DNA of 25,856 nucleotides from an uncultured Gammaproteobacteria bacterium (lineage in GTDB: Bacteria > Pseudomonadota > Gammaproteobacteria > GCA-002705445 > GCA-002716945): positions 1 through 25,856 of the forward strand of contig CAJWMM010000001.1 in assembly GCA_913043035.1 (NCBI GenBank). The letters run 5' to 3'. The notes under the pieces were generated by a model. The model saw nothing but the letters and a program-made list of their open reading frames with translations. It was not told the DNA's origin and made no database searches. A program made the position numbers and the translations under genes. Shown here piece after piece: positions 1 through 5,738 of this stretch (position 1 is the stretch's first letter; the number at the start of each line of letters is the position of its first letter).

Positions 1-1106
1 TTAAGATCCATTATTTCAGACATCCACTCAAATGGATTAGTTGCACCAGGAAATTGTTCTGGTAAACCAACTTGAGTCAATCTTCTGTTAGCTATGAATT
101 TAATGAATTCCTCATATAGACTAGCATTGATACCAAGAATTGGTTTTGGCATAGTATCGTATGCATACTGTGTTTCTAATTTGACTCCAGTCATAATTAA
201 ATCAACCATTTCTGATTTGAAACTATCTGTCCATAATTCTGGATTCTCAAGTTTTATTTGATTAATAACATCAATGCCAAAGTTCATATGCATGGATTCA
301 TCTCTTAAAATATATTGAAATTGCTGTGCGACACCAGTCAATTTATTTCTTCTACCCATAGAGAGTATTTGTGTGAAACCAACATAAAAGAAGATGCCCT
401 CAAATACAACATAGAATGCTATTAAGTCTCTAAGTAGTCTTTGATTATTTTCTTTTGTCCCTGTTCTAAAATTTGGGTCACCTAGACTTTGAGTAAATGG
501 TAGAGCCCACTCAGCTTTTGTTGCTACTGCAGGTATTTCTCGATACATATTAAATATGCGTGTTTCTTCAAGTCCAAGTGACTGAACACAATATGTGTAT
601 GCATGCGTGTGTATTGCTTCCTCAAATGCTTGTCTAAGTAAATATTGTCTACATTCTGGATTTGTTATATGTCTATATACTGCAAGAACTAAATTATTTG
701 CCACAAGCGAATCAGCAGTCGAAAAGAATCCTAGGTTAACTTCGACAATTTTTCTCTCATCTTCAGTAAGTCCTTTAGGGTCATTCCATAGCTTGATGTC
801 ATCATGCATGGCTATTTCCTCAGGCATCCAATGGTTAGCTGACCCATCTAAATATTTTTTCCAAGCCCATTCATATTTAAATGGTACTAATTGGTTTAAG
901 TCTGCTCTACAATTAATGATTGCCTTATCATCAACTCTTATTCTACTCGCACCTTTTTCTATGTTCTCAATACCTGTGAGTCCCTCTTGAGCATACGTAT
1001 TATCAGCTTGAATAATAGGTTCGCTAAGATTATCAGTTTTAGGTTCTGATATTTTTGGCTCAGGTTTGTTTAATGCTTCATTTATAGGGTCGTCCCAGTT
1101 ATACAT
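1..1106 (-). CDS. nrdB: Ribonucleotide reductase class Ia beta (R2) subunit, Pseudomonas/Chlamydia-like subclass; 3' end truncated by the window edge
   Basis: Not in the ORF track; translated by hand from ATG at 1106: [14 protein letters not shown]...[29 protein letters not shown]...[16 protein letters not shown]...[13 protein letters not shown]...[11 protein letters not shown]...[13 protein letters not shown]...[14 protein letters not shown]. Ferritin-like diiron ligands (D, ExxH, E, ExxH) and the radical Tyr are present. AGGCGG SD lies 8 nt upstream of the ATG. Confidence 0.97.
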
Positions 1107-1111
1107 AATAA

Positions 1112-1273
1112 TTACCGCCTTTGTTTGTTCGTTAAATGCTGCCATCCTTTCAGCGCAGACAAATTCTTTTTGGTTATTTCGAGTTCTTCCAGTTCTCTTT
1201 TAATGTTCACAACCGTATACACTAGTAGTGTTACAATAACTGCAATTGATGAAATAATATATATCATTGACAT
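1112..1273 (-). CDS. Putative small single-pass membrane protein (53 aa from ATG 1273, or 51 aa from ATG 1267) between nrdA and nrdB
   Basis: Hand translation: [53 protein letters not shown]. The ATG at 1267 overlaps the nrdA TGA (ATGA). The TAA at 1112-1114 ends 5 nt before the nrdB ATG, so the ORF fills the whole 157-bp gap. Confidence 0.7.
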
Positions 1274-4119
1274 GCCTCACATTCTGGATCATCTATTAAG
1301 CACTGCTCGCTCTCAGTATTATTACTTACGGCATTTAAAGCAGAACCACTGTTGTCTGTAGTACTTTTTTCAACATGTGTTGCTCCAAGTGATCGTAAAT
1401 AATAAGTCGTTTTCAAACCTCTAATCCATGCTAGTTTATAGGCACTATCTAGTTTTTTACCATCCGTATCAGGAATATACAAATTGAGAGATTGGGACTG
1501 ATCTATCCACTTTTGTCGTCTCGCAGCAGCTTCAACGAGCCACCTAGTGTCTATCTCAAAACATGTTTGATAGAGAGTTTTTAAATCATCAGGTACTCTA
1601 CTTATCGAGCTCAATTGACCATCAAAATATTTTAAATCTTTAATCATTACTTCATCCCAAATATTTGCTTTCTTGAAGTCTTCAATCAAATATGGATTGA
1701 TGACTGTGAATTCACCTGACAAGTTTGATTTAACATAGAGGTTTTGATATGTGGGCTCTATTGATTGAGAAACACCGCATATGTTTGATATCGTTGCGGT
1801 TGGTGCGATGGCTAATGTATTTGAATTTCTCATGCCATGCTCCTTAATCTGATCTCTAAGTTTTTGCCAATCAAGCGTCTCACTCATATCAACATCTAAA
1901 TACTTTCCACGTATTTTTTTTAAGTTTCTTAAGCTATCTATCGGAAGTATTCCTTGACTCCAAAGTGATCCATCAAAAGATTCATATGAACCTCTTTCTT
2001 TAGCTAACTCCATTGATGCAGAAAGAGCATAGTAACTTATAACTTCCATACTTTTATCTGCAAAGTCTACAGCATCCTCGGATGCATATGACATTCTAAG
2101 TTTGTAAAGTGAATCTTGAAAGCCCATAACTCCCAAGCCAACTGGCCTATGTTTAAAATTAGAGTTTTTCGCTTTATCGACACTATAATAGTTATAGTCA
2201 ATGACATTATCGAGCATTCTCATTGCAGTTTTCACAGTCTTCCGCAATTTTTTCGTATCAAGTTGCATATCATTAGTTATGTGTGCTGATAAATTGACAG
2301 AGCCTAGATTACAAACAGCGATTTCATCTTTAGATGTGTTTAAAGTAATCTCAGTGCAAAGATTTGAAGAGTGCACTACACCAGTGTGTTGCTGAGGTGA
2401 TCTTAAGTTACAAGGGTCTTTAAAAGTTATCCATGGATGTCCCGTTTCGAAAAGCATGCTTAGGATTTTTCTCCATAAATCAATAGCCTTAACTCTCTTG
2501 AAGTTACTTATCTTGCCTTGATCAGCTAAATTTTCATACTCAGTATATTTCTCCTCAAAATCTAAACCTGTTAAATCATGTAGGTCTACAGTATCGTTAG
2601 GCGAAAAAAGTGTCCATTCTTCGTCGCTATGAACCCGTTTCATAAATAAATCAGGTATCCAATTTGCAGTATTCATATCATGAGTTCTTCTTCTATCGTC
2701 CCCTGTGTTTTTTCTTAGTTCTAGGAATTGCTCTATATCAAGATGCCAAGTCTCTAAATAAGCACACATAGCTCCTTTTCGTTTTCCACCTTGATTAACT
2801 GCAACTGCTGTATCGTTAGCAACTTTCAAAAAAGGTATAACACCTTGGCTTTTACCATTAGTGCCTTTTATGTATGACCCAAGTGCCCTAACTTGTGACC
2901 AATCATTCCCGAGACCTCCTGCAAATTTAGATAGCATTGCATCGTCACTTATTCCCTCGAAAATACCTTTAAGGTCATCTGGTATAGTTGATAAATAACA
3001 CGACGATAGTTGTGGACGAAGAGTCCCTGAATTAAACAGAGTAGGTGTGCTGCACATAAAGTCAAAAGATGAAATTAAATCATAGAACTCTACAGCTCTT
3101 TCTTCTCTATTCTTTTCATTTATTGCAAGTCCCATTGCCACTCTCATAAAAAATGCTTGAGGTAGTTCAAACCTAATTTCTTTTGAGTGTATGAAATATC
3201 TATCATATAAAGTTTGTAAACCAAGATATGTGAAGGCTTTATCTTTATCAGCACTAATATGCTTACATAAGTAATCAAGATCAAAATTTAATAATTCTTT
3301 ATCAAGTAGATTAAGTTCACATGCTTTGACTAAATATGATTTAAAGTAAGTGGGATAAAGATCGCCTATTTCATCAAGCGTAGGAGCTTTATTAGGCTCA
3401 CCTAGAAAAGTTAGAGCTTCCTCATAGATGCTGCTCAAGAGTAATCTAGCAACTACATATGAATAATTTGGGTCTTTCTCAATTAATGGTCTAACTGAAA
3501 TCAAAATTGAGCTTGAGAGATCTTCTTTTTTTATGCCGTCATAAATGTTTTTATCAATGGTTTCATAGACGGCATCAGCAGATACGTCACTTATGTTTTG
3601 ACAACTTTGTGAAATAATTAAACGTAGTTTTGATATATCTAATTGCTCAGTTGTACCATCTTCAAGTGTTACAGATTTATCTATTGGTAAATCTTCTAAG
3701 TCTTCGACTACATTTTGGCTTCTCGCCTTTGTTCTCTCCTCACGATAGAGTACATATGACCTTGCTACATCTTGATAGCCTGCACGCATTATAGCTAACT
3801 CAACCTGATCTTGTATATCTTCGATATGGACAACACCTCCTTCAGGAAATCTTCTTTTAATTGCAGAGTCTACTTTATTGGCTAAATTCTCAACTTCATT
3901 ATGAATTCTTGTTGAAGCTGCGGCACTACTACCTTCGACACTCAGGAAAGCTTTAGTCATAGCTACTACTATTTTGCTTAGATCGTATGATGTTACTTTA
4001 CCATTTCTTCTCATCACTCGATACTTGCCTGGTATAGGCGGCATACTTAGATCTTTTTCGTAAACATCAGTCTCTGCTAACTCAGCATGCTGATTATCAT
4101 TGTGTAATTCTTCTTTCAT
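1264..4119 (-). CDS. nrdA: Ribonucleotide reductase class Ia alpha (R1) subunit with two N-terminal ATP-cone domains
   Basis: ATP-cone 1 (VMRRNG...HIEDIQDQVE...VARSYVLYREER) and a degenerate second cone (VTLEDG...EKDPNYSYVVARLLL). Catalytic motifs STPTLFNSG, QLSSCYL, SSNLCTEI, AVCNLGS, APTATIS, KTTYYLRS and C-terminal [12 protein letters not shown]. Confidence 0.98.
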   Translation of the reverse strand: MKEELHNDNQHAELAETDVYEKDLSMPPIPGKYRVMRRNGKVTSYDLSKIVVAMTKAFLSVEGSSAAASTRIHNEVENLANKVDSAIKRRFPEGGVVHIEDIQDQVELAIMRAGYQDVARSYVLYREERTKARSQNVVEDLEDLPIDKSVTLEDGTTEQLDISKLRLIISQSCQNISDVSADAVYETIDKNIYDGIKKEDLSSSILISVRPLIEKDPNYSYVVARLLLSSIYEEALTFLGEPNKAPTLDEIGDLYPTYFKSYLVKACELNLLDKELLNFDLDYLCKHISADKDKAFTYLGLQTLYDRYFIHSKEIRFELPQAFFMRVAMGLAINEKNREERAVEFYDLISSFDFMCSTPTLFNSGTLRPQLSSCYLSTIPDDLKGIFEGISDDAMLSKFAGGLGNDWSQVRALGSYIKGTNGKSQGVIPFLKVANDTAVAVNQGGKRKGAMCAYLETWHLDIEQFLELRKNTGDDRRRTHDMNTANWIPDLFMKRVHSDEEWTLFSPNDTVDLHDLTGLDFEEKYTEYENLADQGKISNFKRVKAIDLWRKILSMLFETGHPWITFKDPCNLRSPQQHTGVVHSSNLCTEITLNTSKDEIAVCNLGSVNLSAHITNDMQLDTKKLRKTVKTAMRMLDNVIDYNYYSVDKAKNSNFKHRPVGLGVMGFQDSLYKLRMSYASEDAVDFADKSMEVISYYALSASMELAKERGSYESFDGSLWSQGILPIDSLRNLKKIRGKYLDVDMSETLDWQKLRDQIKEHGMRNSNTLAIAPTATISNICGVSQSIEPTYQNLYVKSNLSGEFTVINPYLIEDFKKANIWDEVMIKDLKYFDGQLSSISRVPDDLKTLYQTCFEIDTRWLVEAAARRQKWIDQSQSLNLYIPDTDGKKLDSAYKLAWIRGLKTTYYLRSLGATHVEKSTTDNSGSALNAVSNNTESEQCLIDDPECEACQ

Positions 4120-4221
4120 TCTTTAACTGTTACCTTTTTCTATATAATTTTTGCTTATCTAATGTCCTTATCTTATATTTAGGCACTCGAAAATGTCTTC
4201 AGTGACACTGCTACAATTAGA

Positions 4222-4250
4222 ATTATACCACTAAATATTGTGGTTGTAAG
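4222..4250 (-). promoter_or_regulatory. sigma70-type promoter of nrdAB (-35 CTTACA, 17 bp spacer, extended -10 TGgTATAAT)
   Basis: On the minus strand TATAAT is at 4227-4222, preceded by TG-n. CTTACA is at 4250-4245 with an exact 17-nt spacer. It sits about 100 nt upstream of the nrdA ATG. Confidence 0.7.
4228..4243. promoter_or_regulatory. NrdR box 1
   Basis: CCACTAAATATTGTGG matches the NrdR consensus acaCwAtATaTwGtg and occupies the -35/-10 spacer of the nrdA promoter. Confidence 0.85.
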
Positions 4251-4259
4251 TACGTTGAA

Positions 4260-4275
4260 ACTCAATATGTTGTGT
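4260..4275. promoter_or_regulatory. NrdR box 2
   Basis: ACTCAATATGTTGTGT matches the NrdR consensus and starts 32 bp from box 1, the typical tandem spacing of about three helical turns. Confidence 0.8.
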
Positions 4276-4281
4276 TTTTTT

Positions 4282-4301
4282 TGTGGTAAAGTTGTGGAAA
4301 A
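4282..4301 (-). promoter_or_regulatory. Pair of DnaA-box-like sites upstream of nrdA
   Basis: Minus strand TTTTCCACA (4301-4293) matches TTWTNCACA exactly. TTTACCACA (4290-4282) has one mismatch. They are 11 bp apart. Confidence 0.55.
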
Positions 4302-4346
4302 CCTGTAAATACTTGATTATAAGAATATACTAATATTCTAAAAATA

Positions 4347-5738
4347 TTACATTATTAGGGTTGCAACACCGAGTAAAGATATAAATCCAACGATATCTGT
4401 GATGGTAGTGAGTATTACTCCTCCTGCTATGGCTGGATCTATGTTTAATTTTTTGAGGATCAACGGGAGAGTAACACCACTGATCGCACCTATGATCAAA
4501 TTTACCAGCAAAGCAACTGCAATTACTACCCCAAGAAAGACGCTATCAAACCAGAGATAAACTGCTATTGATACAACTGATGACCATAGAATACCGTTAA
4601 GTACACCAATCGCACTCTCTTTGAGTATAAGCAACTTTGAGTTTGATAAGCCAATTTGGTTTGTTGCTTGTGATCGAATTACAAGAGCAAGGCTTTGCAT
4701 ACCAGCTATCCCACCCATGCTAGCTACAATAGGCATCAGGATTGCAAGCGTTACTATTTTCTCTATCGTCGCTTCAAATATTCCTATTGCAGCAGCCGCA
4801 AGGATTGCTGTAATGAGGTTCGCTCCTAACCATAGAGTTCTTCTTTTTGTACTTTGTATTATTGGTGCAAAAATATCATCTTCTTTATTCAAACCTGCCA
4901 TATTTAAAACCGAGTCATCGGCTTCATCCCTTATGACATCGACAACATCATCAATGGTAATCCTGCCAAGCAGTATTCCATCCTTATCAACAACAGCTGC
5001 TGATAAGAGATCGTGGTCTTCAAATATCTTTGCGACTTCGTGCTCATTTACTTTTGGATCAATAATGTTTTTATCCTCAGTCATGATCTCTGATATAAGT
5101 GCTGAGGGTTTTGCAACTAATAGATTCTGAATAGAAACATATCCGAAATACCTATTCATGATATCTGTTACGAATACATTATCTGTTTGTTCGGGTAACT
5201 CACCTAATTTTCTTAAATACCTGAGAAGTACCTCAACAGTCACATTTGCACGAATATTGATTGTATCAGTGTTCATAAGACCGCCAGCTGTATCATCGGG
5301 GAAAGACAAAACTTTTGCTAGTCGATCTTGGTTTTGCTTATCTAAACTATTAACAGCCTTTTTAATAAGATTTGACGGAAGTGACTTTATGATGTCAGCT
5401 AGATCATCTGTATCAAGATTTTCTGCAATCTTGGCTAGTTCCTCAGTCCCTCCTTCATCTATAAGCTCATCCAATAAATTACCGCGTATCTCCTCACTCA
5501 GTTCAGCAAGGGTTTCCCCTTTGTTTTGATTAGAGACAAGCTTCCAAATTAAGTCTCTTCGATTACGAGGTGAACTCTCAATAACATCGGCAATCTCAGA
5601 TGGGTAAAGAGAGTTGAGCAGATTCCTTGCTTGAATAATTGCTCCACTATCGAGCACCTCAGATAATTGGTCTAAGGTGAGTGCATCTTGTTTTTGCTCT
5701 AATTTTGCTTCCATGAAACCATTATGCTCTTTAAACAC
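4347..5738 (-). CDS. mgtE: Magnesium transporter MgtE (start may be ATG at 5714)
   Basis: MgtE_N domain (LYPSEIADVIES), FPDDTAGGLM, two CBS domains (GRITIDDVVDVIRDEA), and TM domain with MPIVASMGGIAGMQ, IDPAIAGGVILTTITDIVG. Confidence 0.96.
   Translation of the reverse strand: MFKEHNGFMEAKLEQKQDALTLDQLSEVLDSGAIIQARNLLNSLYPSEIADVIESSPRNRRDLIWKLVSNQNKGETLAELSEEIRGNLLDELIDEGGTEELAKIAENLDTDDLADIIKSLPSNLIKKAVNSLDKQNQDRLAKVLSFPDDTAGGLMNTDTINIRANVTVEVLLRYLRKLGELPEQTDNVFVTDIMNRYFGYVSIQNLLVAKPSALISEIMTEDKNIIDPKVNEHEVAKIFEDHDLLSAAVVDKDGILLGRITIDDVVDVIRDEADDSVLNMAGLNKEDDIFAPIIQSTKRRTLWLGANLITAILAAAAIGIFEATIEKIVTLAILMPIVASMGGIAGMQSLALVIRSQATNQIGLSNSKLLILKESAIGVLNGILWSSVVSIAVYLWFDSVFLGVVIAVALLVNLIIGAISGVTLPLILKKLNIDPAIAGGVILTTITDIVGFISLLGVATLIM

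Follow-up and report, generated by a model that had tools for sequence, protein, structure and literature searches.

The operons of class Ia RNR count among the best studied in bacteria. Their accessory genes, such as those for the yfaE ferredoxin, the nrdI flavodoxin and the glutaredoxin-like nrdH, encode soluble redox proteins endowed with cofactor or cysteine motifs; literature searches turned up no report of nrdAB enclosing a gene for a membrane protein, and to our knowledge none is known within a class Ia RNR operon. The smORF yoaM of Escherichia coli lies antisense to nrdAB and is unrelated. Small membrane proteins encoded within or beside operons are represented in enterobacteria by KdpF, CydX, AcrZ, MgtS and MgrB, which are 30-60 residues long, possess one membrane helix and mostly a cytoplasmic C-terminus, are often coupled to a neighbouring gene and bind a larger membrane protein. 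The Pf3 coat protein represents another type of short membrane protein, a single span in the N-out/C-in orientation inserted by YidC. The gap between nrdA and nrdB itself holds small genes in T4-type coliphages, namely ORF231-233 in RB49 and nrdA.1, nrdA.2 and mobE in T4 (PMC2790892).

The locus described here belongs to a window of 25,856 nucleotides (the whole stretch of DNA that was analysed) from an uncultured gammaproteobacterium, the assembly of which is 73 % complete and 0.87 Mb in size. The corresponding order is made of a single family divided in six genera (g1-g6) with 37 species genomes of ~1 Mb, 33 of which carry nrdA. As in the T4-type coliphages, a tiny gene fills the nrdA-nrdB gap; here, however, the gene is bacterial and vertically conserved, its product is predicted to be membrane-anchored, and its own phage relatives are located elsewhere. 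In comparison with yfaE, nrdI and nrdH, it would likewise be a small extra gene co-transcribed with the RNR subunit genes, but the peptide, predicted to be membrane-spanning, contains neither cysteine nor cofactor motif. With KdpF, CydX, AcrZ, MgtS and MgrB, the predicted protein shares its size, its single helix and a gene embedded in an operon; there is, however, no sequence relationship (no Pfam or NCBIfam match), and while KdpF-type genes reside in operons for membrane complexes, the small gene resides in the operon of a soluble enzyme. The likeness to the Pf3 coat type lies in a short uncharged or acidic N-terminal side (I-P-D/E-F in g3, g4 and g6) followed by a helix and then basic residues, both proteins being devoid of a signal-peptide n-region; this is a resemblance in predicted topology only, with no homology. 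The features of the locus are as follows:

3..1106, minus strand: nrdB, for the class Ia RNR small subunit, truncated at the end of the contig (Pfam Ribonuc_red_sm, 1.5e-88)
1112..1267, minus strand: small gene, 51 codons plus TAA; frame kept in 33 of 33 genomes of the order; dN/dS 0.23
1115..1122, minus strand: plausible Shine-Dalgarno (SD) site of nrdB, AAAGGCGG, within the final codons (K-Q-R-R) of the small gene and 8 nt from the nrdB ATG
1264..4119, minus strand: nrdA, class Ia RNR large subunit, 951 aa (Pfam Ribonuc_red_lgC, 2.5e-194; lgN; two ATP-cone matches)
1275..1278, minus strand: GAGG, SD-like site of the small gene, inside the Glu-Ala codons of nrdA and 7 nt before the ATG at 1267
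4228..4275, minus strand: two palindromes resembling NrdR boxes (4260-4275 and 4228-4243), with starts 32 bp apart, upstream of nrdA

The sequence-only reading from which this work started had proposed that the whole gap is one open frame, joined to the nrdA stop by an ATGA overlap and ending 5 nt before the nrdB ATG, with the SD site of nrdB in its last codons; this layout is borne out in full. On the minus strand, the 157-base gap is occupied by a single open frame (1112..1273) with two possible starts, an ATG at 1267-1265 yielding 51 aa and an in-frame ATG at 1273-1271 yielding 53 aa. The former overlaps the nrdA TGA (1266-1264) as ATGA; it is also the start that is kept among relatives, and the small gene is already called in public assemblies as a 51-aa protein. 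At the other end, the TAA of the small gene (1114-1112) is followed by 5 nt and then by the nrdB ATG (1106-1104). The longest ORF for nrdB would begin at 1145 and overlap the small gene by 34 nt, but this start is rejected in favour of the ATG at 1106 (M-Y-N-W-D-D) because the tblastn alignments of relatives all begin at MYNWDD and the upstream extension is broken by stops in most of them. In two members of genus g1 (L002 and L004), the extension in the nrdB frame (frame +1) is open across the spacer and encloses the small gene entirely; this second open frame is not kept elsewhere and is probably due to chance. The first residues of NrdB (window positions 1086-1106) conform to the pattern M-L/Y-N-W-D-D/E-P, which is conserved class-wide and precedes a variable linker of ~40 residues.

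Is the frame in the gap a gene? A search of the genomes with the peptide (tblastn) matched 18 loci, all 18 between nrdA and nrdB, and missed genus g6. The frame itself (+2 relative to the nrdA stop) is nonetheless open over the full 138-201 nt of spacer in all 33 nrdA-bearing genomes, g6 included, and the length of the peptide varies across the order from 42 to 67 aa through in-frame insertions and deletions. Among the 31 distinct spacers, this frame contains 0-2 stops (its own terminator), versus means of 7.4 and 4.6 stops in the other two sense frames and of 2.2-4.4 in the antisense frames. Selection was estimated from 13 phylogenetically independent pairs, after removal of the codons overlapping with nrdA or containing the ribosome-binding site of nrdB: dN/dS is 0.23 in frame (dS 0.52, dN 0.12; 0.20-0.33 by bootstrap over codon columns), against 1.01 and 0.93 when the same alignment is read in the shifted frames, and differences at codon positions 1, 2 and 3 number 75, 59 and 160. 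Over the same pairs, the flanking nrdA and nrdB have dN/dS values of 0.05 and 0.014. By region, the hydrophobic helix (0.21) and the juxtamembrane segment (0.22) are followed by a distal tail at 0.42. Frameshifts, stops or a dN/dS near 1 in relatives, the pattern by which the earlier proposal of a gene could have failed, were thus not found.

The gap would otherwise be accounted for by a frame left open by chance, by a regulatory spacer that does not code for protein or by a gene of the opposite strand. From base composition, 53 open codons would arise by luck in an AT-rich sequence with a probability of ~0.01-0.02, or about 1-2 %, a figure that holds for one sequence, and plus-strand ORFs do exist at 1066-1203 and 1125-1361. 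The frame is, however, kept in 31 distinct spacers while the antisense frames are on average interrupted as given above, the codon-position pattern and dN/dS point to coding, and the spacer has neither an Rfam match nor an excess of RNA structure: its predicted folding is no stronger than that of shuffled sequences (z +1.9), and a search of Rfam 15 at permissive thresholds over 900-4500 returned no family in the spacer and only a chance-level match to sbrA upstream of nrdA. As the frame is conserved, dN/dS is low and the other frames are filled with stops, this group of explanations is regarded as refuted for practical purposes. Since the gaps between the other operon genes of the window range from -8 to 40 nt, an empty gap of 157 nt would moreover be an outlier. 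The usage of stop codons in the window, where TGA ends 6 of 23 genes, is uninformative as to the TGA of nrdA. The spacer frame is thus almost certainly a real protein-coding gene under purifying selection, as judged from comparative sequence evidence. One genome of the same genus contains two near-identical junctions between nrdA and the small gene on separate contigs (G001:C5:4912-5052 and G001:C8:87196-87339); this doubling is probably not a duplication but the result of mixed strains in an assembly with 4 % contamination.

The arrangement of the two junctions of the small gene is conserved as well. The 3' end of nrdA (minus strand) reads ...GAA TGT GAG GCA TGT CAA TGA, so that its last codons (E-A-C-Q-stop) provide the small gene with both its GAGG and its ATGA start. 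The spacing between GAGG and ATG is 7 nt in g1-g5 and 10 nt in g6; the alternative ATG at 1273 is disfavoured for use of this site because only 1 nt separates them, which is too close. The 5' junction is ATGA in g1-g5, while in g6 the ATG begins 1 nt into the stop of nrdA, giving TAATG or, in three genomes, TGATG; two g2 genomes start instead at an ATG located 10 nt upstream. At the 3' junction, the position of AAAGGCGG is occupied in relatives by AAGGTGAT, AAGGAGGT or AAGGAGAT, and the stop of the small gene falls between 12 nt before and 8 nt past the nrdB ATG. In many relatives the peptide ends with K-G-D-K-N-V, its TAA being made from codons 2-3 of nrdB.

Translational coupling to both nrdA and nrdB, already part of the sequence-only reading, is the natural interpretation of these conserved junctions. 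Ribosomes ending nrdA at its UGA would restart at the overlapping AUG, aided by the GAGG 7 nt upstream, and those ending the small gene would stop 5 nt before the nrdB AUG, the last codons that they translate being the SD site of nrdB. With its stop near this AUG and the SD in its last codons, the small gene would also relay translation from nrdA to nrdB, and would clearly exemplify a gene with a second role, that of passing translation on from one essential gene to another. This raises the question as to whether the relay is everything, only the act of translating the spacer being of consequence and the peptide being functionless. Both junctions are indeed built for coupling, with a stop that always falls within the narrow interval around the nrdB ATG. 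Against such a view, the dN/dS of the small gene is far under what stop-codon avoidance alone would give, the shifted frames being at ~1.0; phage copies found in a different context retain the hydrophobic helix and the R-x-x-E-E motif; and so compact a genome could delete the spacer, as other families manage with 34-63 nt. A relay with a functionless product is thus very unlikely.

The genes beyond nrdB are convergent, and the operon is therefore made of nrdA, the small gene and nrdB. Upstream of nrdA, the second of the two NrdR-like boxes abuts a TATAAT (4222-4227) and the boxes overlap the -10. Each has 2 mismatches to the consensus used, and 5 such sites are found window-wide versus 3.7 expected, which is not above chance; the argument for NrdR thus rests on the position of the boxes and their spacing. 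A nrdR gene is present in the genome (G000:C53:2964-3404, 163 bits). The NrdR regulation put forward earlier is accordingly plausible: paired boxes at a 32 bp spacing on the TATAAT and the presence of the regulator gene speak for it, while the lack of enrichment of the pattern over the window does not. On the RNA side, the lack of excess structure in the spacer fits a stretch in need of ribosome access. Marine metatranscriptomes from two studies contain related contigs, one of 784 nt (96 % identical) that spans nrdB, the small gene and nrdA, and a second one with the nrdB start and the complete small gene. Three variants fall inside the small gene, of which CGG>AGG (Arg) and CTG>CTA (Leu) are synonymous and AAA>AGA replaces Lys by Arg. 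These RNA contigs lend weak support to expression; contigs do not allow a single transcript to be proven, and carry-over of DNA is possible.

In the 51-aa form, residues 2-20 are hydrophobic (mean Kyte-Doolittle 2.49) and are followed by the juxtamembrane segment N-I-K-R-E-L-E-E-L and a basic end, K-Q-R-R; the hydrophobic N-terminus of about 20 residues and the basic tail noticed at the outset are thus both present. The best 19-residue window has a mean Kyte-Doolittle of 2.0-2.7 in each of the 29 distinct bacterial peptides, none of which carries a K or R before the helix, as opposed to 2-6 over the 15 residues that follow. Such a distribution of charges predicts, under the positive-inside rule, a single-pass protein of the inner membrane with an N-out/C-in topology, and the absence of a basic n-region indicates that the small protein has no classical signal peptide. 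Family members conform to the consensus M-I-Y-x-I-S...Y...(D/N)-x-(K/R)-R-x-x-E-E...K-K-N, in which Tyr3 and Arg24 (51-aa numbering) are invariant and flank the helix; these two residues could reflect the mere generic anchoring of a membrane helix. Peptides of genera g3, g4 and g6 have an extra short acidic N-terminal extension, such as M-N-x-Y-I-P-D-F. AlphaFold2, run with the family alignment, predicts one continuous helix with a pLDDT of 89-93 in the hydrophobic part and ~50-60 in the tail. The coiled-coil-like character suggested earlier for the stretch past the helix stands as an amphipathic pattern in the genus of the window and does not extend to the family, in which the C-terminal tail measures 19-39 residues and contains prolines and indels in addition to being modelled at low confidence. 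As the distal tail is poorly conserved and is partly set by the SD site of nrdB, little sequence is left there to specify a function.

All bacterial copies lie between nrdA and nrdB, in 33 of 33 genomes and also on metagenome contigs (P0030 and P0036). Beyond the order, the nrdA-nrdB spacers sampled from 27 other families of the class range from 34 to 661 nt, none with a comparable hydrophobic open frame. Searched with the single peptide, genome contigs yielded three close relatives only; a profile built from bacterial copies only and run against 1.84 billion representative proteins retrieved 37 cluster representatives (E <= 0.001), which share this architecture without exception; a few are obvious chimeras or truncated calls. 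Neither the peptide nor its phage relatives have a match in Pfam-A or NCBIfam (best E for the peptide 0.075-0.1, far below the cut-offs) or in PHROGs v4, and a feature search of the ESM Atlas reached a best score of 0.83, below a meaningful level. The gene is thus genuine and conserved, without annotation in the family libraries, and both its place and its link to phages are unexpected. It belongs to an unnamed family found in one marine gammaproteobacterial order with genomes of ~1 Mb and in a group of marine T4-like phages. Several other families have long spacers. That of L079 (G103), from another gammaproteobacterial family, is 629 nt long with two small ORFs that, by eye, resemble an antitoxin of the Phd/YefM type and a toxin of the RelE/ParE type; that of L054 (G039) has 335 nt, 63 % GC and an open frame of ~100 codons with no obvious membrane segment; those of L065, L066 and L071 measure 387-661 nt.

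Several of the profile matches are non-bacterial: P0023, P0024, P0039 and P0041, together with 12 IMG/VR contigs, come from AT-rich sequences. These phage contigs encode RNase H, DUF6433, a phrog_624 DNA-binding protein, PhoH, lysozyme, ribosomal protein S21 and a PD-(D/E)XK nuclease, and their nearest cultured relatives by DNA are T4-like myophages of Pelagibacter and Methylophilales. In 19 of 19 phage contigs, the small gene is located between a phrog_25889 gene of 89-93 aa, a neighbour common in pelagiphages, and a PF11927 (HODM_asu-like) gene of 257-276 aa, which it usually overlaps by 8 nt, ATGTTTGA (L083-L101 and L103; for example L089:3501-3620). This overlap mirrors the ATGTATAA overlap with nrdB in the bacterial genera g2 and g6. 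An RNR gene adjoins the phage homologue in none of the 19 contigs examined. The homology is strong, the alignment of the bacterial and phage sets by hhalign giving a probability of 99.2 % (E 1.9e-19); the phage copies retain the invariant Tyr and Arg as well as the E-E motif, and occur in both forms, with and without the M-N-x-Y-I-P-D extension. A tblastn search of cultured-phage records with a phage-type peptide returned no match, and Pelagibacter phage Mosig has the 89-aa neighbour gene with no small membrane gene after it.

In a maximum-likelihood tree of the peptides, those of g6 group with the main phage type (support 94/95) and not with the other bacterial genera. Gene exchange between phage and host, in one direction or the other, is likely from this grouping, the tree being built on only ~60 alignment columns and its root being arbitrary. 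The peptide might then be an accessory membrane protein derived from, or shared with, phages, with a role in phage-host conflict such as superinfection exclusion or envelope modification, which would have become fixed in the bacterial order at a place where its expression happens to be reliable. The homologues are indeed conserved genes of marine T4-like phage contigs, and the position of the g6 peptides fits an exchange between phage and host. Conversely, the bacterial copy occupies one and the same locus in each of the six genera, a pattern that resembles old vertical inheritance and not a recent acquisition, the tree suffers from the limits just given, and the family has no match in Pfam, NCBIfam or PHROGs, libraries that are independent of PADLOC. 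A function in phage-host conflict is therefore doubtful, with a probability well short of one in five. As for the origin of the gene, it may have originated de novo within the spacer, out of the GAGG and ATG that the conserved E-A-C-Q-stop end of nrdA already offered, and been captured by phages later.

The sequence-only reading had assigned the peptide to the enzyme encoded around it, as a third component that may tether RNR to the membrane or modulate it. In such a scheme, the cytoplasmic tail would bind NrdA, NrdB or the machinery of dNTP synthesis and replication at the membrane, and the phage copies would serve the RNR of the phage or of the host likewise. The strict linkage to nrdA and nrdB in 33 of 33 bacterial genomes, with coupling to both, is what a dedicated RNR component would display; the operon has no other gene, the following genes being convergent, and the phage copies lie among genes for replication and nucleotide metabolism (RNase H, the phrog_624 DNA-binding protein and PhoH). 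The family does not, however, co-occur with RNR genes wherever it is found, since the linkage seen in all the bacteria vanishes in all 19 phage contigs; a tail that measures 19-39 residues and accommodates prolines and indels does not resemble a conserved docking surface; and the gene was not found in the spacers of the 27 other families of the class in spite of closely similar NrdA and NrdB proteins. Prediction of a complex between the peptide (25-row alignment) and the NrdB of the closest relative (391 aa, 19-row alignment) gave a score of 0.00, which speaks neither for nor against binding. A tether or modulator of RNR is thus unlikely, at roughly one chance in seven, and we give slightly less credence still to the broader proposal of a membrane anchor or regulator that serves class Ia RNR, or the dNTP-synthesis and replication machinery, in the marine order and the T4-like phages alike.

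The best explanation overall, which we hold to be somewhat better than an even bet, is a translationally coupled inner-membrane protein of 51 residues that acts on its own on a membrane partner. The protein would be made from the transcript of nrdA, the small gene and nrdB by translational coupling, which would tie its expression to DNA-precursor synthesis; its N-terminus would face outward, and a charged C-terminal helix of ~30 residues would extend into the cytoplasm. As the helix and the R-x-x-E-E motif are retained in phage copies that are not adjacent to RNR genes, the peptide is probably a self-contained module, which would act alone, through the membrane helix and the juxtamembrane segment, on a membrane-embedded partner. 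Binding within the bilayer is favoured by the fact that the helix and its end residues are the best conserved while the tail is variable; by analogy, this is the pattern of small membrane proteins that bind larger membrane proteins. As to this particular mode of action, the binding of a larger membrane partner, the odds appear evenly balanced.

Whatever its partner, the gene is fixed throughout an order of marine bacteria that are abundant, uncultured and, with genomes of ~1 Mb, retain little DNA without a reason. Should the peptide act on RNR or on replication, it would link the supply of dNTPs to the membrane and, were it a true anchor of RNR, it would be the first component described to tether a bacterial RNR to the membrane. 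Should its target lie elsewhere, it would still offer a clean example of a family of small proteins shared between host and phage that annotation libraries have missed.
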